Origin: Escherichia phage vB_EcoP_LNA3
Length of the DNA stretch: 39,586 nucleotides
Sequence record: MZ311862.1
Direction: 5' to 3' (one strand)
Shown one piece after another: positions 1 to 25,829 of the stretch; within the stretch, counting starts at the first letter, position 1, and each line of letters starts with the position of its first letter. The translations under genes and the position numbers were made by a program. Under the pieces are notes generated by a model. That model saw nothing but the letters and a program-made list of their open reading frames with translations, ran no database searches and was not told the origin of the DNA.

Positions 1-167
1 ACTACATCGTCACTAAAGCTAGCCGTGAGTTCAACGCTAAGTTCTTCGGTAGCCCAGAGTCTGAACTGTACCTTCGTGAGCAGGAAGCAGAACTCTATCA
101 GCAGGTCATGGAATACGAGATGGATACTGGTCGCTACAACATGATGTCTGACATTGGGAGGGACTAA
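1..167 (+). CDS. tail tubular protein A (gp11), C-terminal part; 5' part is at 39187..39586
   Basis: Translation from base 3 ends ...[54 protein letters not shown], matching the remembered T7 gp11 C-terminus (WIVTKASRQFNNRFFG...). Stop TAA 165..167 overlaps the gp12 ATG. Confidence 0.85.
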
Positions 168-2524
168 TGCCGCTTATTACGCAAAGCATAAAAAATCTTA
201 AGGGTGGCATTAGCCAACAGCCTGACATCCTGAGGTTCTCAGACCAAGGCGAGGCACAGGTTAACTGCTGGTCATCCGAGAGTGATGGACTCCAGAAGCG
301 GCCACCTACAGTCTTCAAGCGACGTCTTAACATCGACGTTGGAAGCAACCCTAAGTTCCACCTGATTAACCGTGATGAGCAGGAGCAGTATTACATCGTG
401 TTCAATGGGTCCAACATTCAGGTAGTTGACTTGAGTGGTAAGCAATACTCAGTGTCAGGTGCGGTAGACTACGTTAAGTCCTCCAACCCACGAGATGACA
501 TCCGTGTCGTTACCGTGGCAGACTATACGTTCGTCGTTAACCGTAAGGTTGTCATCAAAGGTGGAAGCGAGAAGTCACACTCTGGTTATAACCGCAAAGC
601 ACGAGCTTTAATCAACCTACGTGGTGGACAGTATGGTCGAACCCTTAAGGTGGGAATCAACGGTGGCGTTAAGGTCTCGCATAAGCTACCAGCAGGTAAT
701 GATGCCGAGAATGACCCGCCTAAGGTGGACGCTCAAGCCATTGGTGCAGCTCTGAGAGACCTTCTTGTTACTGCCTACCCTACCTTCACGTTTGACCTTG
801 GGTCTGGATTCCTGCTAATCACAGCTCCTTCAGGGACCGATATTAACTCAGTGGAGACGGAGGATGGCTACGCTAACCAGCTAATAAGCCCAGTCCTAGA
901 CACTGTGCAGACAATTTCTAAACTACCTCTTGCCGCTCCTAATGGGTATATCATTAAGATTCAAGGTGAGACCAACAGTAGCGCCGATGAATATTACGTG
1001 ATGTATGACTCCAATACTAAGACGTGGAAGGAGACAGTAGAGCCGGGAGTGGTCACTGGGTTCGATAACACCACAATGCCACATGCTCTGGTGAGACAAT
1101 CTGACGGCTCCTTTGAGTTCAAGACTCTGGACTGGTCTAAGCGTGGTGCTGGTAATGATGACACAAACCCTATGCCTAGCTTCGTGGATGCTACGATTAA
1201 CGATGTGTTCTTCTACAGGAACAGGCTAGGGTTCTTGTCAGGCGAGAACGTAATCATGAGCCGTTCAGCAAGCTACTTTGCGTTCTTCCCTAAGAGTGTG
1301 GCGACACTGAGTGATGATGACCCTATTGATGTAGCTGTAAGTCATCCTAGAATCTCAATCCTTAAGTATGCCGTTCCGTTTAGCGAGCAGCTACTACTTT
1401 GGTCAGATGAGGTGCAGTTCGTGATGACAAGCTCAGGGGTCCTTACCTCGAAGTCTATCCAGCTTGATGTAGGCTCAGAGTTTGCCTTAGGAGATAATGC
1501 CAGACCGTTCGCTGTAGGACGCTCAGTCTTCTTCTCAGCGCCTCGTGGGTCATTCACCAGCATTAAGCGATACTTCGCTGTAGCAGATGTGTCTGACGTG
1601 AAGGATGCCGATGATACCACTGGTCACGTACTATCCTATATCCCTAACGGGGTGTTTGACATTCAGGGAACAGGGACTGAGAACTACATCTGCGTCAACT
1701 CTACAGGTGCATACAACCAAATCTACCTCTACAAGTTCTTGTTTAAGGACGGCGTACAGCTTCAAGCCTCTTGGTCTCACTGGGAGTTCCCTAAAGCTGA
1801 TAAGATTCTGGCGTCTGCGTCGATTGGCTCTACCATGTTCATTGTTCGTCAGCACCAAGGCGGCGTGGACCTTGAGCACCTTAAGTTCATCAAGGAGGCA
1901 ACTGACTTTCCGTCAGAGCCGTATAGACTCCACGTTGACTCCAAGGTGTCTATGGTCATCCCAATTGGCTCGTTTAATGCTGACACATATAAGACTACGG
2001 TTGACATTGGTGCTGCTTATGGTGGTAATGCTCCGTCTCCCGGTCGGTACTATCTGATTGACAGTCAGGGTGCTTATTTGGACCTTGGGGACTTGACCAG
2101 TATCTCTACTGTGATTACCCTCAACGGCGATTGGTCAGGACGTACAGTTTTCATCGGGCGGCCCTATCTGATGTCCTACAAGTTCTCACGGTTCCTGATT
2201 AAGATTGAAGATGATAGTGGCACCCAGTCTGAAGACACTGGTCGTCTACAGCTTCGTCGGGCTTGGGTCAACTACAAGGACACTGGCGCTCTGAGACTCA
2301 TTGTCAGAAACGGTGAGCGAGAGTTCGTTAACACCTTTAATGGGTACACCCTTGGTCAGCAAACCATAGGGACTACTAACATTGGTGACGGGCAGTATCG
2401 CTTCGCTATGAATGGTAACGCATTAACCACAAGTCTAACCTTAGAGTCCGACTATCCTACCCCAGTGTCAATCGTTGGGTGTGGCTGGGAGGCGTCATAC
2501 GCTAAGAAAGCTCGTTCCGTCTAA
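167..2524 (+). CDS. tail tubular protein B (gp12)
   Basis: 785-aa ORF directly after gp11, size and position as in T7 (794 aa); GGGAGGG Shine-Dalgarno upstream. Confidence 0.9.
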   Translation: MPLITQSIKNLKGGISQQPDILRFSDQGEAQVNCWSSESDGLQKRPPTVFKRRLNIDVGSNPKFHLINRDEQEQYYIVFNGSNIQVVDLSGKQYSVSGAVDYVKSSNPRDDIRVVTVADYTFVVNRKVVIKGGSEKSHSGYNRKARALINLRGGQYGRTLKVGINGGVKVSHKLPAGNDAENDPPKVDAQAIGAALRDLLVTAYPTFTFDLGSGFLLITAPSGTDINSVETEDGYANQLISPVLDTVQTISKLPLAAPNGYIIKIQGETNSSADEYYVMYDSNTKTWKETVEPGVVTGFDNTTMPHALVRQSDGSFEFKTLDWSKRGAGNDDTNPMPSFVDATINDVFFYRNRLGFLSGENVIMSRSASYFAFFPKSVATLSDDDPIDVAVSHPRISILKYAVPFSEQLLLWSDEVQFVMTSSGVLTSKSIQLDVGSEFALGDNARPFAVGRSVFFSAPRGSFTSIKRYFAVADVSDVKDADDTTGHVLSYIPNGVFDIQGTGTENYICVNSTGAYNQIYLYKFLFKDGVQLQASWSHWEFPKADKILASASIGSTMFIVRQHQGGVDLEHLKFIKEATDFPSEPYRLHVDSKVSMVIPIGSFNADTYKTTVDIGAAYGGNAPSPGRYYLIDSQGAYLDLGDLTSISTVITLNGDWSGRTVFIGRPYLMSYKFSRFLIKIEDDSGTQSEDTGRLQLRRAWVNYKDTGALRLIVRNGEREFVNTFNGYTLGQQTIGTTNIGDGQYRFAMNGNALTTSLTLESDYPTPVSIVGCGWEASYAKKARSV

Positions 2525-15988: not shown

Positions 15989-16084
15989 CTGAATGAATAA
16001 CTATAGGCGAAAACTGAATTAATAAGCAGTTAGTAACCTATAGTTACTACCAGTCTAACCTACTGTTTTACAAGGAGTTTGGAC

Positions 16085-16103
16085 TTAACTATCACTATAG
16101 GGA
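16085..16103 (+). promoter_or_regulatory. phage RNA polymerase promoter (phiOR position)
   Basis: TTAACTATCACTATAGGGA downstream of gene 19, before the right-end region. Confidence 0.75.
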
Positions 16104-16279
16104 AGACCCCCGGTTACTTATAGTATTACTGTAGTGAATATACATATGCAGACTTTATGCAAGACCTTAGGAGGCAGACTCCGAGTTCTTACCTAAGGCT
16201 TGCACCGATGGAAGGAGGGTGATATTAATCATCACACCCTCATAACTTAAGTAGACCCAAGAGACAGGAGGTATGTAGC

Positions 16280-16438
16280 ATGGGTAAGACCAAGGCTGTT
16301 CTTAAAGCTCTGGCGACCAATAGAGCTACGTACAGGTTTCTTGCTGCTGTTCTACTTGCTGCTGGCGTTACTGCTGGAAGTCAGTGGGTCTGGTGGGTCG
16401 AGACTCTCGTATGTACTCTGGTGTCTGAGTGTCATTAA
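16280..16438 (+). CDS. small hydrophobic protein (gene 19.5 position)
   Basis: 52-aa ORF (MGKTKAVLKALATNRATYRFLAAVLLAAGVTAGSQWVWWVETLV...) with AGGAGG 6 nt upstream; below the ORF-track cutoff. Confidence 0.45.
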   Translation: MGKTKAVLKALATNRATYRFLAAVLLAAGVTAGSQWVWWVETLVCTLVSECH

Positions 16439-16676
16439 CGCCATCATGGTAACAATCAACGAAAGCAAGACCTAAGGTCAGTTCATAGCTGACGCTACTC
16501 TACTGACCTTAGCTACTGTAGTCAAGGACTTTAGGTAACACCTTAAGAGAAGCTCACTTAGGGTCATCCTACTTATTGGTCTATCCTAGTGTCGCCTGAC
16601 CTACGGTCCTTGACCTACAGTGGCTGTGGCCTACAGTAGTGACGATGAGTTTTGGACCAAAAGTTTGAGACCACAT

Positions 16677-16853
16677 CTCACAGTTCAAGAACCTCAAGTC
16701 TCCCCATAGGCCCTCTTTCAGTCAGACCAAAGGCCCTACCCCAGTCTATCATAAGGCTGGACCGATGGTCAAGACTTCAGGTCAACGATAGGTGGTGACT
16801 ATGGCTTAGGGAAGGACGATAGGTGGTGACTATAGGTCTGTCTTTGAGTCTCT
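16677..16853 (+). repeat. predicted terminal-repeat region; genome left end predicted at about 16677
   Basis: TCTCACAGTT...ACCTCAAGTCTCCCCATAGG parallels the remembered T7 left terminus TCTCACAGTG...ACCTAAAGTTCCCCCATAGG; ...GTCTTTGAGTCTCTATCTGT parallels the end of the T7 repeat. Boundaries approximate (about +/-30 bp). Confidence 0.5.
16785..16833 (+). repeat. 18-bp direct repeat ACGATAGGTGGTGACTAT, two copies
   Basis: Exact copies at 16785..16802 and 16816..16833, 31 bp apart, inside the predicted terminal repeat. Confidence 0.7.
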
Positions 16854-16870
16854 ATCTGTATCAGACCATA

Positions 16871-16950
16871 AGTCACTAACCTACAGTCTCACTAACCTAC
16901 AGTCTCACTAACCTACAGTCTCACTAACCTACAGTCTCACTAACCTACAG
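16871..16950 (+). repeat. tandem array of 16-bp units TCTCACTAACCTACAG (four perfect copies plus one near-copy)
   Basis: Perfect units at 16887, 16903, 16919 and 16935; degenerate CCTACAG-containing units continue to about 16995 and also occur at 16600..16640. Confidence 0.9.
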
Positions 16951-17103
16951 TCTCAACCATAAGACACCAACACCTACAGTCATAGACCTACAGTTACTAG
17001 ACACAAAGCTATAGACTTAAGGTCAAAGACATGTTAGTCAAAGACTATATCCTATTACACCATGGGGCCGACGATAGCTTAATCAATATTATTTCAAATT
17101 ACC

Positions 17104-17132
17104 TATTGACTATAGGTCTAGACTATGGCTTA
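17104..17132 (+). promoter_or_regulatory. host sigma70-type early promoter (T7 A1-like)
   Basis: TTGACT, 17-bp spacer, CTTAAT; the TTGACT-ATAGG context resembles the remembered T7 A1 promoter. Confidence 0.5.
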
Positions 17133-17246
17133 ATAGCTTCCGTCAACACGACACGGCAACAACCGGATAGTGAAGACGCCTGGTCATCCCGGTTAAGTAG
17201 ACAGCCTGATAAGTCATACGAACAACAGGCAGATGACAGAAAGTAG

Positions 17247-17275
17247 TTGACAAGAAGTAAGACTTAAAGTAGTAT
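17247..17275 (+). promoter_or_regulatory. host sigma70-type early promoter (T7 A2/A3-like)
   Basis: TTGACA, 17-bp spacer, TAGTAT. Confidence 0.5.
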
Positions 17276-17429
17276 GTACCACATCAACACGAAACAACGG
17301 TGAAGCCTAACACTGAAACAGGCTAGCACGGCGACGACAGCCAGTGCGAATGCTCTTTAACAATCTGGATAACTCTTAATGTGCGCCGATAGCGACTAAC
17401 TACATGGCCTTTAGTCTACATCTGAAGGC

Positions 17430-17449
17430 CCTGACTGATAGTCACTAAC
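17430..17449 (+). repeat. 20-bp conserved element CCTGACTGATAGTCACTAAC, copy 1
   Basis: Identical copy at 17747..17766; each lies about 15-30 bp upstream of a gene start. Copy 1 follows a GGCCTT/AAGGCC hairpin (17407..17428). Confidence 0.7.
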
Positions 17450-17465
17450 TTAACGGATGGACACT

Positions 17466-17711
17466 ATGAAACACTTAAGCACAATCACTAATCGCAATGA
17501 AGTATTCGTGAACACTAAAGGTTATGCGTGGATTCAGCTTAAAGAGATGAGAGGAGCGCGTCACCGTGTGGTAGTTCGCAAGGTATCAAGCAAGCCGTTC
17601 AGCAACTACAGCGTAGATACTATGCGTATAGACAACGAGACTTACCTGATAGACTCGCAGATAACCGTGCGTCCTACAGCGGGCATCTCAGCTCCTTATT
17701 TCGCTAACTGA
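17466..17711 (+). CDS. hypothetical early protein upstream of the Ocr-like gene
   Basis: 81 aa from ATG 17466 (84 aa from ATG 17457); first ORF after the early promoters; no similarity I recognise. Confidence 0.5.
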   Translation: MKHLSTITNRNEVFVNTKGYAWIQLKEMRGARHRVVVRKVSSKPFSNYSVDTMRIDNETYLIDSQITVRPTAGISAPYFAN

Positions 17712-17794: not shown

Positions 17795-18298
17795 ATGGAA
17801 CGTAATGCTAACGCATACTATGAGCTGCTGGCTGCAACCGTTGAGGCATTTATCGAGCGTATTCAGTACGACCACCTGACTCAAGATGATGACTACAGCG
17901 ATGCGCTGCATGAGGTCGTAGACGGTCAGGTTCCCCACTATTACCACGAGATTTTTACGGTGATGGCTGCTGATGGTATAGACCACGAGTTCGAAGACTC
18001 TGGGATGATGCCTGAAACCAAGGACGTAACGCGTATACTACAAGCTCGCATCTATGAGGCGCTTTATAACGATGTGTCTAATAGCTTGGATGTAGTCTGG
18101 TTTGAGGCTGAAGAGGCAGACGAAGAGGATGAATATTGGGTAGTTGACGCTAAAACAGGCGCAATAATTGTGCAAGCTGTAGCTCTTGAGGTCGCTACTG
18201 CATGTGCCAAGGTCAACTATGCAATAGGTCGCCACCTGAAGGTGGAAGACATCAATGATAACGTAGTGTTCGACCCTGCGGCTGAGGACTGCGAGTGA
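17795..18298 (+). CDS. ocr: Ocr-like anti-restriction protein (gene 0.3 homologue) with C-terminal extension
   Basis: [45 protein letters not shown] matches the T7 Ocr core; 167 aa versus 117 in T7. Confidence 0.8.
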
Positions 18299-19149: not shown

Positions 19150-19167
19150 TTAACTATCACTATAGGA
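19150..19167 (+). promoter_or_regulatory. phage RNA polymerase promoter directly upstream of the RNA polymerase gene
   Basis: TTAACTATCACTATAGGA about 72 bp before the gene 1 ATG. Confidence 0.7.
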
Positions 19168-19239
19168 CTCAAGGTCTAAGACTCCAAGTGAAAGACCAAA
19201 GAGACTTTAAGTGAAAGACTAATAACAAGGACTTTAAGT

Positions 19240-21921
19240 ATGAGCGTCATCTCTATTGATAAACACGACTTCTCTGATGTGTCGAACGCCATTGAGCCGT
19301 TTAACCTGCTGGCAGACCACTACGGGCAAGACCTTGCAGTCAAACAGCTTCAGCTTGAGCATGAGGCCTACACAGAAGGCGAGCGACGTTTCATCAAGAA
19401 CCTTGAGCGCCAGACCGAGCGCGGGGAACTGGCAGACAATCAGGTCGCCAAGCCTTTGATGCAGACTCTGGTGCCTAAGATTGCGCAAGCAGTCAAGGAG
19501 TGGCACGAAGGCCAAGACGGGAAGCTGTCAACCTCTCGTCCTAGCGTAGCGTTCACCAAGTTGAGCACTGAAGAGAAGGCCGTCAAGGACCGCTCTATGC
19601 GCATCTCCTGTGAGTCCGCTGCGGTTATCATACTGAAGGTCATACTCTCCAAGCTGGTCAAGCCTGAAGGGATACCGATTACACCTATGGCCTCAGCGTT
19701 AGGTCGCACACTTGAGGACGAAATCCGCTTCGGTCGCATCCGTGACAAGGAGAAGGAGCACTTCAAGAAGGCGATAGCTGAGAACCTGAACAAGCGAGCT
19801 GGGGCATCCTACAAGAAAGCCTACATGCAAGCTGTAGAGGCATCCATGCTGGAGCAAGGCCAACTGGAAGATGCGTGGGGGACTTGGAGTCCGACCGAAG
19901 CGGTACACGTTGGCATCAAGATGCTCGAGATTGTCATCCAGTCCACACAACTGGTCGAGCTTAAGCGTTATGGTGCTGGCAATGCGGCGGCTGACGTTGA
20001 GATGGTCCACCTGTCAGACTTCTGGGTAAAGAAGATGGCACAACGTGGATTCAGCCTTGCGGGTATTGCGCCAGTCTATCAGCCTTGCGTCGTTCCACCT
20101 AAACCGTGGACTGGTGTAGTAGGCGGTGGGTACTGGGCCAAAGGTCGCAGACCGTTACCATTGATTCGCTTAGGGTCTAAGTCTGCGGTAGCACGTTATG
20201 AAGACGTGTACATGCCTGAAGTCTATGACGCTGTGAACATCATTCAAAATACACCTTGGAAAGTGAACAAGAAGGTATTGAACGTGGTGAACATGGTCGA
20301 GAAGCTGAACAACACGCCTATTGATGACATCCCTCAGATGGAACCGCTGAAGCCTGAGGACTATGCTGGTGAGACCGAGGAGGAACTCAAGGCATGGAAG
20401 AAGGCTGCTGCTGGTATCTATCGCCGCGAGAAGGCCCGACAGTCACGCAGATTATCACTGAGCTTTATCATCAACCAAGCGAATAAGTTCTCTCAGTTCA
20501 AGGCCATCTGGTTTCCATACAACATGGACTGGCGCGGTCGAGTCTACGCTGTGCCGATGTTCAACCCTCAGGGTAACGACATACAGAAGGGTCTCCTGAC
20601 TCTGGCAGTCGGTAAGCCTATTGGTGCTGACGGTTTCAAATGGCTGAAGGTCCATGGTGCAAACTGCGCGGGTGTTGATAAAGTCACCTTCGAGGAGCGC
20701 ATCAAGTGGGTGGAAGACAACCACGAAAACATCATGGCTGCTGCTAAGGCACCGATGGATAGTATTGAGTGGTGGGGCAAGTTAGACTCTCCGTTCTGCT
20801 TCCTTGCGTTCTGCTTCGAGTATGCTGGTGTAATGCACCACGGATTGTCTTACTCCTGCTCACTGCCGATAGCGTTCGATGGGTCATGCTCTGGTATTCA
20901 GCACTTCAGTGCGATGCTTCGTGACCACATCGGTGGACATGCAGTAAACCTGACGCCATCCGGCATGGTACAAGACATCTACCGCATTGTGTCTGACCGC
21001 ATTGAGGAGGAGCTTAAAGTCCTGCTGATTACCGGTACTGACAACGAGATGGTCACTCACGAGGATAAGAAAACTGGTGAGATTACCGAACGTATCAAGC
21101 TGGGGACACGAGAGCTGGCCCGTCAGTGGTTGACATACGGTATGTCACGCAAGGTCACTAAGCGTTCAGTCATGACTCTGGCATACGGGTCGAAAGAGTA
21201 CGGCTTCGCTGACCAAGTTTACGAGGACATCGTGATGCCAGCGATTGACTCAGGATCTGGCGCTATGTTCACCGAGCCGAGCCAAGCGTCTCGCTTCATG
21301 GCTAAGATGATTTGGGAAGCTGTGAGTGTGACCGTAGTTGCTGCGGTTGACGCGATGAAGTGGCTTCAAGGTGCTGCCAAGCTGCTGGCTGCTGAGGTGA
21401 AGGACAAGAAGACTGGAGAAATCCTGAAGCCTTGCCTTCCGGTACACTGGGTCACTCCTGATGGTTTCCCGGTCTGGCAGGAATACCGCAAGAAGGATAC
21501 CACTCGTCTGAACCTGATGTTCTTAGGGTCATTCAACCTTCAGCCTACCGTCAACAGAGGTACGAAGAAAGAGCTGGACAAACACAAGCAGGAGTCAGGC
21601 ATTAGCCCGAACTTCGTCCACTCACAAGATGGTAGCCACCTCCGCAAGACTGTAGTCCATACTCACCGCAAGTATGGCGTGATGTCGTTCGCAGTGATTC
21701 ACGATAGCTTCGGGACCATCCCGGCTGACGCTGAGTATCTGTTCCGTGGGGTCCGTGAGACTATGGTCGAGACCTACCGCGACAACGATGTGCTGCTTGA
21801 CTTCTACGAGCAGTTTGAATACCAGCTTCACGAGAGCCAGCGCGATAAGTTGCCAGAGCTTCCGAAGAAAGGTAAACTGAATATTGAGGACATCTTGTCT
21901 TCAGACTTTGCATTCGCTTAA
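19240..21921 (+). CDS. T7-like single-subunit DNA-dependent RNA polymerase (gp1)
   Basis: 893 aa, collinear with T7 RNAP (DFSDV...PFN.LADHYG...; C-terminal ...DILSSDFAFA). Specificity loop at 21541..21600 reads QPTVNRGTKKELDKHKQESG. Confidence 0.97.
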   Translation: MSVISIDKHDFSDVSNAIEPFNLLADHYGQDLAVKQLQLEHEAYTEGERRFIKNLERQTERGELADNQVAKPLMQTLVPKIAQAVKEWHEGQDGKLSTSRPSVAFTKLSTEEKAVKDRSMRISCESAAVIILKVILSKLVKPEGIPITPMASALGRTLEDEIRFGRIRDKEKEHFKKAIAENLNKRAGASYKKAYMQAVEASMLEQGQLEDAWGTWSPTEAVHVGIKMLEIVIQSTQLVELKRYGAGNAAADVEMVHLSDFWVKKMAQRGFSLAGIAPVYQPCVVPPKPWTGVVGGGYWAKGRRPLPLIRLGSKSAVARYEDVYMPEVYDAVNIIQNTPWKVNKKVLNVVNMVEKLNNTPIDDIPQMEPLKPEDYAGETEEELKAWKKAAAGIYRREKARQSRRLSLSFIINQANKFSQFKAIWFPYNMDWRGRVYAVPMFNPQGNDIQKGLLTLAVGKPIGADGFKWLKVHGANCAGVDKVTFEERIKWVEDNHENIMAAAKAPMDSIEWWGKLDSPFCFLAFCFEYAGVMHHGLSYSCSLPIAFDGSCSGIQHFSAMLRDHIGGHAVNLTPSGMVQDIYRIVSDRIEEELKVLLITGTDNEMVTHEDKKTGEITERIKLGTRELARQWLTYGMSRKVTKRSVMTLAYGSKEYGFADQVYEDIVMPAIDSGSGAMFTEPSQASRFMAKMIWEAVSVTVVAAVDAMKWLQGAAKLLAAEVKDKKTGEILKPCLPVHWVTPDGFPVWQEYRKKDTTRLNLMFLGSFNLQPTVNRGTKKELDKHKQESGISPNFVHSQDGSHLRKTVVHTHRKYGVMSFAVIHDSFGTIPADAEYLFRGVRETMVETYRDNDVLLDFYEQFEYQLHESQRDKLPELPKKGKLNIEDILSSDFAFA

Positions 21922-25115: not shown

Positions 25116-25829
25116 ATGGCTAAAGAGCAACTGAAGACTTTCACCACTCCGGTAGCTGGTATAGTTGAGCCTTACGCATGGCTGAACAAAGCAGACACCA
25201 AGTTTAATGAGCGTGGTGAGCATAAGGTTAACCTGACATTCGACCTGAGCAACCCGAAGGTCCGTAAGATGATTGATGTCTTACAGAAGATTCACGACGA
25301 TGCGTATGCGAAAGCACTCGCAGACCACGAGAAGAACCCACCTCAGGTTCAGCGTGGCAAGAAGCCTATCGAGCCGCGTGAAGGCGACATGCCGTGGATT
25401 GAGAATGGTGACGGCACTGTTACCCTTAAGTTTAAATGCTTTGCGTCTTACCTTAAAGACGGCAAGTCCGAGCCTATCGTATTACGGTTCTACGACACCG
25501 ATGCTAAGTTAATCCGTGACGTCCCGAATATTGGCGCTGGCTCAAAGCTGAAGGTCAAGTTTAAAGTCCTGCCATTCAAGTGGAACGCTGCTACTGGTGC
25601 AAGCGTTAAGCTCCAGCTTGAGTCCTGCCTTCTGGTAGAACTGAAGGAGTGGAAAGGTGATGGTGCTGGTGGCGATGGTGGCTGGGGTGATGATGAAGAC
25701 CTCGGTACTGGTTACAAAGCGTCAACCGATGGTGACTTCGGTGACGATGACTTCGGTGACGATGACTTCGGTGACGATGGTTCCGAAGGTGGTGACGACT
25801 CCAGCTCTGGTGGAGATTACGACTTCTAA
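25116..25829 (+). CDS. single-stranded DNA-binding protein (gp2.5)
   Basis: 237 aa with an acidic C-terminal tail ending in Phe (...GGDYDF), as in T7 gp2.5. Confidence 0.9.
   Translation: MAKEQLKTFTTPVAGIVEPYAWLNKADTKFNERGEHKVNLTFDLSNPKVRKMIDVLQKIHDDAYAKALADHEKNPPQVQRGKKPIEPREGDMPWIENGDGTVTLKFKCFASYLKDGKSEPIVLRFYDTDAKLIRDVPNIGAGSKLKVKFKVLPFKWNAATGASVKLQLESCLLVELKEWKGDGAGGDGGWGDDEDLGTGYKASTDGDFGDDDFGDDDFGDDGSEGGDDSSSGGDYDF
25734..25778 (+). repeat. three in-frame tandem copies of a 15-bp unit (GACTTCGGTGACGAT) within the SSB acidic tail
   Basis: Perfect tandem copies encoding the tripled DFGDD motif in the gp2.5 C-terminal tail. Confidence 0.9.

Follow-up and report, generated by a model that had tools for sequence, protein, structure and literature searches.

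A probable concatemer junction in the K1F-like Escherichia phage vB_EcoP_LNA3, located by comparison with T7-family relatives

The region between positions 16439 and 17000 of Escherichia phage vB_EcoP_LNA3 is, judging from its sequence, very probably the concatemer junction of a K1F-like phage of the T7 family. Positions refer to the window, the whole 39,586-nucleotide stretch of DNA that was analysed (MZ311862.1). The physical ends of the LNA3 genome are predicted by homology with relatives to lie at the edges of a 178-bp direct repeat, of which the window holds one collapsed copy. The region is an ordinary and already well-described T7-family (K1F-like) genome-end region, and it contains nothing new.

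Results and discussion

Genomic context of the junction

Phage LNA3 belongs to the genus Kayfunavirus (K1F-like, T7 family), as indicated by its nucleotide similarity, K1F gene order, and K1F-type promoter set. The junction region is 87–99% identical to Kayfunavirus records, and the identity between the window and such records is 96–97% over 12 kb. The RNA polymerase of LNA3 shares 63% identity with that of T7. The genome is complete and was opened inside gene 11. Since the end of the window joins its start in a single ungapped alignment within K1F gene 11, the window is a full circular permutation.

The following genes and promoters delimit the junction:

16083–16105, + strand: promoter of the phage RNA polymerase corresponding in position to phiOR; it precedes gene 19.5 and is directed rightward to the junction
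16280–16438, + strand: gene 19.5 (52 aa, from the list of open reading frames; phrog_2193, E = 4e-22), the gene closest to the right genome end
17106–17142, + strand: first early promoter for the host RNA polymerase (TTGACT, 17-nt spacer, CTTAAT), identical in 36 of 37 bases to the EcoDS1 host promoter 469–505
17247–17286, + strand: second early host promoter (TTGACA, 17-nt spacer, TAGTAT; consensus scan 10/12), corresponding to the EcoDS1 host promoter 609–647

The large terminase gene lies upstream of gene 19.5, which is collinear with the gp19.5 coding sequences of EcoDS1, CR44b, and K11. The original prediction placed about 590 bp of non-coding DNA between gene 19.5 and the early promoters, and the gene positions bear this out, as gene 19.5 ends at 16438 and, beyond it, no open reading frame with homologues begins before 17031. 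Of the mapped host promoters, the first begins at 17106, and gene 0.3 starts at 17795. The junction region thus has gene 19.5 on one side and the early host promoters with gene 0.3 on the other, as in Studiervirinae. The two open reading frames inside the non-coding stretch, 16652–16798 (+) and 16581–16697 (−), have no PHROG matches. A search of Rfam returned nothing at the gathering score; the best match, a microRNA model with 28 bits against a threshold of 58, was dismissed as chance.

The phiOR promoter is one of 11 + strand matches to AAACTATCACTATAGGGA, for which the chance expectation is 0.04, and it aligns with the annotated phiOR of EcoDS1. It is directed across the junction. No phiOL-type phage promoter was found at up to three mismatches between the repeat array described below and the host promoters. 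Phage EcoDS1 (EU734172, curated Kayfunavirus) likewise has phiOR upstream of gene 19.5 and lacks an annotated phiOL, and it carries three host promoters and a phage promoter upstream of gene 1 in the same architecture at homologous positions. In contrast, T7 has phiOL after its array, and phiOL is also present in T3 and phiYeO3-12 (Teetrevirus). Neither phiOR (16083–16105) nor the hairpin (16472–16512) with its TAGTCAAG box had been part of the original prediction.

Direct terminal repeat and predicted genome ends

The terminal repeat and the sequence adjoining it are:

16641–16675, + strand: conserved block adjoining the junction, GACGATGAGTTTTGGACCAAAAGTTTGAGACCACA, ending at the cut that would create the left end; 96% mean identity over 21 junctions
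16676–16853, + strand: direct terminal repeat of 178 bp, one collapsed copy, TCTCACAGTT...TTTGAGTCTCT, mapping exactly onto the EcoDS1 terminal repeat 1–178

The left-end sequence TCTCACAGTTCAAGAACCTCAAGTCTCCCCATAGG starts at 16676. The original prediction had set the left end at about 16677; the end and its motif were correctly recognized, and the exact base is one position off. Position 16676 corresponds to base 1 of the records of K1F (NC_007456 and AM084414, which are independent), Vec13, EcoDS1, SH3, SH4, and further IMG/VR genomes. Seven IMG/VR genomes start zero to two bases from the left-end motif and carry its second copy 179–196 bp from the opposite end. The end has the form TCTCAYAGT preceded by ...TGAnnnnnnA, which is characteristic of Studiervirinae according to a comparison with the ends of T7, T3, YeO3-12, K11, K1F, and EcoDS1. 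The adjoining block contains ACCAnAAAAnnTGA...A/TCTCA (slashes mark repeat boundaries), common to T7 and T3. The left end of T3 and phiYeO3-12, TCTCATAGTTCAAGAACCCAAAGT, is nearer to that of LNA3 than the left end of T7 is.

The repeat was anticipated to be roughly 175 bp long and to end near 16853, in agreement with the 178 bp found, whose boundaries are those of the annotated EcoDS1 repeat. Four of the seven genomes with both copies have the repeat end ...GAGTCYCT/ATCTGTA, and the remainder deviate by −1 to +4 bp. The right boundary ...GAGTCTCT/ATCTGTA also occurs in EcoDS1, Vec13, SH4, and two other genomes. Terminal repeats are present at both record ends of Vec13 (179 bp), K1F (178 bp, two records), EcoDS1 (178 bp), SH3 (183–184 bp), SH4 (190–191 bp), and CR44b (183 bp). 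The ends of SH3 and SH4 were mapped by run-off sequencing (PMC4925675), and the LNA3 boundaries agree with them; a passage of the same paper cites the K1F repeat as 179 bp. Among deposited relatives, the right edge shifts by −1 to +4 bp and the left edge by no more than 2 bp, so that the exact end bases of LNA3 are uncertain by a few nucleotides.

The EcoDS1 repeat runs, as in LNA3, from TCTCACAGTT to GAGTCTCT. A 1-bp indel in the repeat separates the two phages, and a deletion has removed about 23 bp from the EcoDS1 stretch that leads from the hairpin box to the junction. The first 43 bp of the K1F repeat (NC_007456, AM084414; Scholl and Merril 2005) are identical to those of LNA3. The K1F repeat of 178–179 bp precedes TATCTGTATCAGACC, and K1F has the same hairpin and junction core as LNA3; it differs in containing extra DNA upstream of the hairpin (gp19.4 in AM084414). 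The repeats of T7 (160 bp) and of T3 and phiYeO3-12 (231–232 bp) differ in length from that of LNA3. The order of elements in T7 is nevertheless that of LNA3: phiOR, gene 19.5, the hairpin with a TAGAGTCAAG box, heptamers, and the repeat beginning ...A/TCTCACAGT, followed by ...CT/ATCTGT, the heptamer array, and the early promoters.

Conservation among relatives is highest in the junction core and the first 40 bp of the repeat (0.96–1.0), lower in the middle of the repeat (0.64–0.80), and lowest in the array (0.22–0.6). A palindrome next to the left end, TTTTGGACCAAAA (16650–16662), folds no better than shuffled sequence (z = −0.43), and we do not claim it as a structure for this reason.

The window is circularly permuted and contains the repeat sequence once, and an assembly alone marks no ends. 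LNA3 could accordingly package by a headful, permuted mechanism or have its ends elsewhere, and the region would then be no more than intergenic DNA similar to the ends of relatives. We consider this extremely improbable. Assemblies of phages with short repeats routinely collapse in this manner, and relatives with mapped ends have a terminase, gene 19.5, phiOR, junction core, and two repeat boundaries that are collinear with those of LNA3 and 90–100% identical to them. With terminal ends as predicted, the repeat would be carried at both ends of the packaged DNA, which gives a predicted virion DNA length of 39,586 + 178 = 39,764 bp.

Hairpin and adjoining box

Two conserved elements are located between gene 19.5 and the repeat:

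16472–16512, no strand assigned: inverted repeat (hairpin) with 11-bp perfect arms CTAAGGTCAGT/ACTGACCTTAG and a 19-nt loop, centred 184 bp to the left of the repeat
16513–16535, + strand: conserved box CTACTGTAGTCAAGGACTTTAGG, directly 3' of the hairpin, invariant or nearly so throughout the genus

The succession of a hairpin shortly after gene 19.5, 145–190 bp left of the repeat, and a TAG(A)GTCAA box is shared with the T7 group. Folded as DNA, the hairpin has z-scores of −2.7 (+ strand) and −3.7 (− strand). Its arms are invariant in 27 Kayfunavirus junctions, and the loop occurs in three variants. The arms exhibit no covariation within Kayfunavirus, and a site for a sequence-specific protein would therefore explain their invariance equally well. 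A scan of 16100–17600 detected no intrinsic terminators, which rules out the hairpin as a rho-independent terminator.

Hairpins are present at the same position in T7, T3, YeO3-12, and K11, where four of 14 pairs are compensatory; the hairpin that follows gene 19.5 in T3 and phiYeO3-12 has changes that are compensatory relative to T7. The box aligns with T7 CCCTATAGAGTCAAGTCCTAAGG and with its equivalents in T3 and K11. Position, fold, and box are common to the T7 group, but the stem sequence is not: the T7 hairpin, GGGATT.../...ATCCC, is unrelated in sequence to CTAAGGTCAGT/ACTGACCTTAG. The comparison suggests that Kayfunavirus may have exchanged the GGGATT/ATCCC hairpin of the T7 group for an 11-bp stem of unrelated sequence in the same place and kept the TAGTCAAG box next to it. 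Chung, Nardone and Hinkle reportedly described a hairpin intermediate for T7 in 1990, which we take to be located at the inverted repeat following gene 19.5, at T7 nucleotides 39568–39608.

Candidate pause signal at the junction

The right edge of the repeat overlaps a conserved motif:

16852–16861, + strand: concatemer-junction motif CTATCTGTAT, a candidate site of pausing by the phage RNA polymerase, with the heptamer ATCTGTA (16854–16860) directly after the repeat

All aligned Kayfunavirus share the motif without change, and about 27 genomes of the genus have ATCTGTA at the boundary of the repeat. The label 'concatemeric junction' is given to the homologous CTATCTGT in the EcoDS1 record and to CTATCTGTT in that of K11. 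At the equivalent place, T7, T3, YeO3-12, and K11 have the repeat followed by ATCTGTT. The parallels to T7 that were originally noted at 16677 and 16841–16860 are confirmed by the T7 record, except that 16854–16860 corresponds to T7 nucleotides 161–167, just beyond the T7 repeat, and not to its end.

The heptamer ATCTGTT at the T7 junction has been described in the literature as a class II signal. Class II termination by T7 RNA polymerase is reported to be abolished by any base change, and A, C, or T has to precede the heptamer. The T7 signal makes the polymerase pause or terminate 6–8 nt farther downstream. The base preceding the LNA3 heptamer is T (CT/ATCTGTA), and position 16854 is the first base past the repeat, downstream of phiOR, as is typical for the location of the class II signal. 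The exact class II heptamer ATCTGTT is absent from the junction of LNA3, which carries ATCTGTA, as do all aligned Kayfunavirus. Because the T7 signal reportedly tolerates no base change, pausing at ATCTGTA would depend on a presumed difference in the K1F-type polymerase.

ATCTGTA occurs on the + strand of the window only once, at 16854–16860. The same holds for EcoDS1, SH4, and K1F: each of the four genomes has a single + strand copy, always at the junction, and together they have 14 copies on the − strand, at about 10 distinct sites. For the remaining variants, ATCTGTB, the strand counts in these genomes are 17 versus 17. The strand asymmetry of ATCTGTA relative to ATCTGTB (Fisher p = 0.0007) comes from related genomes and small counts, and is seen only after splitting by the seventh base across the four genomes. 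A second-order Markov model predicts 3.2 copies of pooled ATCTGT[AT] on the + strand of the window, and the 3 observed show no depletion. ATCTGTT is not avoided on the + strand in Kayfunavirus and lies inside genes 1 and 4; T7 has one ATCTGTT on the + strand and four on the − strand.

The single + strand ATCTGTA in four Kayfunavirus genomes is a mildly new point, and hints at a pause signal shifted from the T7 form. Because ATCTGTA is invariant at the boundary and is the sole + strand copy in the four genomes, and ATCTGTT is tolerated in genes 1 and 4, we tentatively propose that K1F-type RNA polymerases recognize a shifted junction pause signal, (CT)ATCTGTA, and not the ATCTGTT of T7, T3, and K11; we regard this as possible, with the balance somewhat against it. 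The polymerase region linked to class II recognition is uninformative, as T7 residues K172 and R173 are conserved in the LNA3 polymerase and only their neighbours differ.

Repeated sequences within and around the terminal repeat

Short repeats occupy the interior of the terminal repeat and both of its flanks:

16468–16640, + strand: right-flank heptamer region with CCTAAGG at 16471, CCTACGG at 16600, and CCTACAG at 16614 and 16630; counterpart of the T7 array left of the right repeat
16785–16802, + strand: first copy of the 18-bp repeat ACGATAGGTGGTGACTAT, inside the terminal repeat, exactly matching the second copy
16816–16833, + strand: second, better-conserved copy of the 18-bp repeat (GACGATAGGTnGGGACTAT)
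16861–16995, + strand: whole left-flank heptamer region, including CCATAAG at 16866 and 16957 and CCTACAG at 16973 and 16987; counterpart of the T7 array at nucleotides 175–338
16871–16955, + strand: tandem array of 16-bp units TCTCACTAACCTACAG, 5.2 copies, 100% identity from 16873

The two exact 18-bp copies had been identified in the original prediction, and both are present; about 0.01 exact 18-mer pairs are expected by chance in 39.6 kb, by our estimate. The first copy is degenerate in relatives, among them EcoDS1 and K1F, which has ACGATAGGTCTAGGCTAT. In genome L031, the motif is amplified to about five copies, extending the terminal repeat to 231 bp, and part of the repeat interior is deleted in genome L025.

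The 18-bp pair might serve transcription rather than packaging, as a degenerate phage promoter or as part of a leftward A0-like host promoter. The second copy reads GTGACTATAGGTC, similar to the promoter core ATCACTATAGGGA, and a third related copy of the motif overlaps the first host promoter. Moreover, a leftward sigma-70-like match is present at 16772–16743, and T3 and YeO3-12 annotate a leftward A0 promoter within their terminal repeats. However, 16439–17456 contains no phage promoter match at up to three mismatches, and the A0-like match lies outside the 18-bp copies. The degeneracy of the first copy in K1F and the variation in copy number in L031 (expanded tandem run) and L025 (interior deletion), which resembles slippage, also argue against a transcription element, and we consider it unlikely.

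Tandem Repeats Finder delimits the 16-bp array to 16873–16955 (period 16, 5.2 copies, 100% match, score 166). The array had been recognized previously at 16871–16950 in a different register: its first unit begins AGTCAC and not TCTCAC, and the perfect run extends from 16873 to 16955. Assemblies are known to err at perfect tandem repeats, and the five-copy, fully identical array could have been mis-sized. This is very unlikely, as the array spans only 83 bp, below a typical read length, and independently sequenced relatives have comparable arrays of three to seven copies.

The heptamer CCTACAG occurs in 16439–17000 nine times on the + strand, at 16614, 16630, 16880, 16896, 16912, 16928, 16944, 16973, and 16987, and never on the − strand. 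When the variants, including CCTAAGG at 16471 and CCTACGG at 16600, are counted, the numbers are 11 and one, respectively. The genome as a whole has 31 matches to CCTACAG, against 6.8 ± 2.7 expected. Degenerate CCTACAG units on both sides of the 16-bp array had been noted originally, and like the other sequence features described there they are present. As also predicted, the arrays occupy the positions of the CCTAAAG arrays of T7, on both sides of the repeat and in one orientation throughout. The T7 clusters are located at 175–332 and 39671–39700, the latter (39671, 39700) just before the right repeat. The heptamer of T7, T3, and phiYeO3-12 is CCTAAAG, in contrast to CCTACAG in LNA3.

Copy numbers of both the 18-bp motif and the 16-bp array vary among relatives. 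Some relatives have no detectable tandem array and others up to about seven copies, with units of 13–16 bp, differing spacers, and the shared core ACCTACAGTC; the K1F array consists of two 29-bp units, compared to five 16-bp units in LNA3. From this comparison, the flanking CCTACAG arrays and the 18-bp motif are slippage-prone repeats that keep their core motif and not their number.

It is quite possible, although we lean slightly away from it, that the heptamer arrays, including the five 16-bp units, are a neutral slippage-prone spacer, and that only the junction core, the repeat edges, the pause motif, and the hairpin are functional. The turnover of the arrays and their low identity relative to the junction core are consistent with a neutral spacer. 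Similarly, the interval from the left repeat to the first promoter is reported to hold 11–34 repeats in Yersinia T7-like phages (PMC5923468). However, the core ACCTACAGT is retained in every relative despite the turnover of copy number and spacers, the arrays keep one strict orientation to the left and right of the repeat, and the two flanks have changed their heptamer together, with CCTAAAG in T7 and T3 and CCTACAG in LNA3. This concerted, oriented pattern fits a co-evolving recognition factor, or gene conversion.

Proposed processing of the junction

The proposed mechanism of junction processing rests on analogy with T7 and T3. In replicating DNA, genome units would be joined head to tail and share one copy of the 178-bp repeat (16676–16853). 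The phage RNA polymerase would initiate at phiOR (16083–16105), transcribe gene 19.5, the hairpin and box (16472–16535), and then the repeat, and pause at CTATCTGTAT (16852–16861), just past the repeat. The paused complex may aid the recruitment of the terminase (gp18/gp19) and the prohead. Sequence-specific cuts between 16675 and 16676 and between 16853 and 16854 would create the ends. Duplication of the repeat, for which the hairpin is the probable priming site, would allow each neighbouring genome to keep one copy. The packaged DNA would start at 16676 and end at 16853 of the next unit, with the repeat at both ends.

Implications for the K1F-like phages

The comparison distinguishes the fixed parts of the junction (junction core, repeat edges, CTATCTGTA, and hairpin with box) from those that change freely (heptamer arrays and repeat interior). 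For practical use, the LNA3 sequence is best opened anew at 16676, with the 178-bp repeat added a second time, which brings it to the virion length predicted above. Open reading frames called by automatic pipelines inside 16439–17030 are best left unannotated.

If the shifted pause signal is real, it would be a natural class II pause/termination variant paired with a different single-subunit polymerase, and we hypothesize that such a pair could be of use for orthogonal transcription tools. Biologically, the LNA3 junction is one further allele of a well-known junction system; if the shifted signal is real, Kayfunavirus would offer a naturally occurring version of the T7 packaging-initiation signals with altered specificity, in both the pause signal and the hairpin.

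Predicted genome ends and terminal repeat

The window is a complete genome in circularly permuted form, opened arbitrarily in gene 11, because its last 400 bases joined to its first 400 form a single ungapped alignment within gene 11 and gene 12 of phage K1F. The original prediction, drawn from the sequence of 16439–16995, correctly recognized, in collapsed form, the ends of a K1F-like phage genome, and all of the elements that it described are real and far beyond chance. Hundreds of records of Kayfunavirus (K1F-like, Studiervirinae) match the region and its surroundings with 87–99% identity. The junction is composed of the following elements, in this order:

16083–16105, rightward: phage promoter phiOR
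16280–16438: gene 19.5, collinear with the annotated gp19.5 of phages EcoDS1, CR44b, and K11
16472–16512: hairpin, followed by a conserved box and heptamers
16676–16853: predicted 178-bp direct terminal repeat
16854–16860, + strand: candidate pause motif ATCTGTA
16873–16955: heptamer-containing tandem array
17106 onwards: early host promoters (first mapped promoter)

About 590 bp of the junction are non-coding, since gene 19.5 ends at 16438 and the next open reading frame (ORF) with homologs begins at 17031; two small ORFs within this stretch have no PHROG match. The ORF at 17031–17246 encodes 71 residues matching phrog_30192 (E = 3e-49) and is annotated as gp0.1 in K1F (AM084414). It overlaps the early host promoter region, with one promoter (17106–17142) inside it and another, at 17247, beginning one base past its stop codon. 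This ORF may be a genuine gene, or else conserved regulatory DNA in which a reading frame is open by chance.

The left-end motif TCTCACAGTTCAAGAACCTCAAGTCTCCCCATAGG is present as predicted, but its first base is 16676 instead of the proposed 16677. In alignments, this position corresponds to base 1 of the two independent records of K1F and of those of phages Vec13, EcoDS1, SH3, and SH4; the termini of SH3 and SH4 were found by run-off sequencing of virion DNA (PMC4925675). An exact 30-mer matched 28 stretches in IMG/VR, distributed over 21 genomes. Seven of these genomes start 0–2 bases from the motif, with a second copy of it 179–196 bp from their other end. The right edge of the repeat reads GAGTC(T/C)CT, followed outside the repeat by ATCTGTAT, in four of seven genomes with both copies, and is displaced by +4 in SH3, +1 in one genome, and −1 in K1F. 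The annotated repeat of CR44b starts 2 bp earlier and ends at +1. The "terminal repeat" annotated at 1..178 of EcoDS1 maps exactly to 16676–16853 in a global alignment. The predicted start at about 16677, length of roughly 175 bp, and end at 16853 were essentially right. The "long terminal repeat" of Vec13 is annotated at 1..179, and that of K1F is cited as 179 bp (PMC4925675); the difference from 178 bp is due to a 1-bp deletion relative to these two phages. The repeat occurs once in the window, as expected if the assembler collapses both terminal copies, and the predicted length of the virion DNA is 39,586 + 178 = 39,764 bp.

We compared the repeat edges with the deposited records of T7 and its relatives. 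The 160-bp repeat of T7 is preceded by AAAAATCTGAGTGACTA, begins with TCTCACAGTG, and ends with GTGTCCCT, directly after which stands ATCTGTTACAG. The repeats of T3 and phiYeO3-12 (231–232 bp) and K11 (180 bp) also border on ATCTGTT. The window repeat ends with GAGTCTCT, followed by ATCTGTATCAG. Thus, of the segment 16841–16860 that had been taken for the end of the repeat, the first 13 bp are the last of the repeat, whereas the 7-bp motif lies just outside.

Conservation is uneven along the 21 junctions. Mean identity is 0.96–1.0 in the junction core and over the initial 40 bp of the repeat, 0.64–0.80 in the repeat interior (16736–16815), 0.84–0.90 in the last 40 bp of the repeat, and 0.22–0.6 in the array. 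The predicted pair of 18-mers, ACGATAGGTGGTGACTAT, is found exactly at 16785 and 16816. It belongs to a motif, ACGATAGGTnnnG(A/G)CTAT, usually present in two copies, of which the second is more strongly conserved. In K1F, the first copy is degenerate; in the window and Vec13, the two are identical. One metagenomic relative (IMGVR_UViG_3300045988_000139) carries a related unit of ~24 bp (GGTGGGACTATTGGTCAACGATA) in several additional tandem copies, resulting in a 231-bp repeat, and another has lost part of the interior, resulting in a 166-bp repeat. Slippage of the motif that forms the 18-bp pair therefore appears to determine how long the repeat is in the genus. The repeat also contains a leftward match to the sigma-70 consensus (16743–16772, − strand; TTGACC and TAGACT 18 nt apart, with TG preceding the −10 element). 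The leftward host promoter A0 is annotated inside the repeats of T3 and phiYeO3-12, and lies at nucleotide 224 in T7.

Hairpin left of the repeat

The hairpin, absent from the original prediction, has perfectly paired 11-bp arms around a 19-nt loop. It begins 34 nt past gene 19.5, and its center lies 184 bp to the left of the terminal repeat. Its DNA fold has z-scores of −2.7 and −3.7 against shuffled sequences. Neither the arms nor the box after them, CTACTGTAGTCAAGGAC, vary among 27 Kayfunavirus junctions, including those with other genes upstream and those that lack the downstream 100 bp, while the loop occurs in three unrelated versions. An imperfect hairpin occupies the same place in phages T7, T3, phiYeO3-12, and K11, 145–190 bp left of their repeats, with a conserved outer stem GGGATT/ATCCC and compensatory changes in four of the 14 pairs in the inner stems. 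These phages share with the window the box TAGAGTCAA after the hairpin. In 1990, Chung, Nardone and Hinkle reportedly placed a hairpin end of T7 concatemers at an inverted repeat ~190 bp to the left of the terminal repeat, and are said to have proposed that it primes repeat duplication. The window hairpin would be the positional counterpart of this T7 end, from which we infer a possible functional link.

Phage promoters

The phiOR promoter, likewise missed at first, is of the K1F type and matches the annotated phiOR of EcoDS1. The K1F-type consensus AAACTATCACTATAGGGA has 11 sites in the window, all on the + strand, against 0.04 expected by chance. The transcript from phiOR to the pause motif would be about 750 nt long, compared to about 710 nt in T7. 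No phiOL-type promoter was matched at ≤3 mismatches in 16860–17456, which extends from the left repeat to the early host promoters; phiOL is annotated there in T7, T3, and phiYeO3-12, and is absent from EcoDS1, as in the window. Another phage promoter (TAACTATCACTATAGGAC, 19151–19168) is located directly upstream of the polymerase gene (19240–21921), which would allow self-amplified expression of the polymerase. EcoDS1 has the equivalent promoter annotated as "phi" (2244–2266), whereas gene 1 in the T7 record lacks an upstream phage promoter.

Heptamers and tandem array

The predicted 16-bp array is real, with 5.2 copies that are 100% identical; in the proposed register, 16871–16950, two bases at the start of the first unit deviate. 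The predicted CCTACAG units number nine on the + strand and none on the − strand within 16439–17000, with related heptamers at 16471 and 16600. Their placement is T7-like, as proposed: they have the positions and orientation of the CCTAAAG arrays of T7 (175–332 and 39671–39700), and the heptamer has changed in concert from one phage to the other. Among relatives, the array past the pause motif ranges from undetectable to about seven copies of 13–16-bp units, in which the core ACCTACAGTC is constant and the spacers differ. Comparable variation has been published for Yersinia T7-like phages (PMC5923468). The literature searched contains no evidence that heptamer arrays act in concatemer processing; weak multi-site recognition and a neutral, slippage-prone spacer are about equally plausible. 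CCTACAG is over-represented outside the junction too, with 22 further sites and 31 in total, against 6.8 ± 2.7 in dinucleotide-preserving shuffles.

Elsewhere in the window, a perfect 15-bp tandem repeat (25733–25779, 3.1 copies) lies in the ORF at the gene 2.5 position (25116–25829), which encodes the single-strand DNA-binding protein. It specifies DFGDD DFGDD DFGDD within the acidic tail at the C terminus of a protein ending in GGDYDF, and looks like slippage-driven variation in tail length. The tail of the T7 homolog contacts polymerase and helicase.

Candidate pause motif

The junction motif of T7 is the concatemer-junction class II signal for pausing and termination by the phage RNA polymerase. 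A complex of the polymerase with lysozyme reportedly pauses at this site and, by interacting with gp18 and gp19, starts maturation and packaging (PMC3276506). The element is already recognized in the genus, because curated records annotate a "concatemeric junction" at CTATCTGT in EcoDS1 and CTATCTGTT in K11. The heptamer is ATCTGTA in every Kayfunavirus examined and ATCTGTT in T7, T3, phiYeO3-12, and K11. For T7 polymerase, class II termination is reported to be lost with any heptamer change.

The T7 genome contains ATCTGTT once on the transcribed strand, at the junction, and four times on the opposite strand. ATCTGTA occurs on the + strand once per genome in the window, EcoDS1, SH4, and K1F, always at the junction, and 14 times in total on the − strand, at about ten distinct sites. 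ATCTGT followed by C, G, or T occurs 17 times on each strand; ATCTGTT alone is not avoided, with two + strand sites per genome, inside genes. The asymmetry of ATCTGTA relative to the other variants has a Fisher p of 0.0007 across these four related genomes; the pooled motif in the window alone is not depleted in a Markov-model test. Residues corresponding to K172 and R173 of T7 polymerase, tied to class II recognition, are conserved. The comparison is suggestive, although not conclusive, of a K1F-type polymerase that may read a signal shifted at position 7.

The sense-strand ATCTGTT sites of the window are at 21737 and 27885, one of them in the RNA polymerase gene, with counterparts in the EcoDS1 (4833) and K1F (5063) polymerase genes. 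An inverted junction 10-mer, CTATCTGTAT, is present on the − strand of EcoDS1 (38666, between phiOR and gene 19.5) and K1F (39017, ~350 bp downstream of the terminase gene), and absent from the window.

Implications

The window shares its junction architecture with EcoDS1, where it is annotated, and with K1F, T7, and T3, for which it has been described, and the genome-end finding is already known. Its practical outcome is that the genome can be re-oriented and annotated correctly. Some novelty attaches only to the possible shift in pause-signal specificity, taken together with the hairpin stem that has been replaced in this genus.
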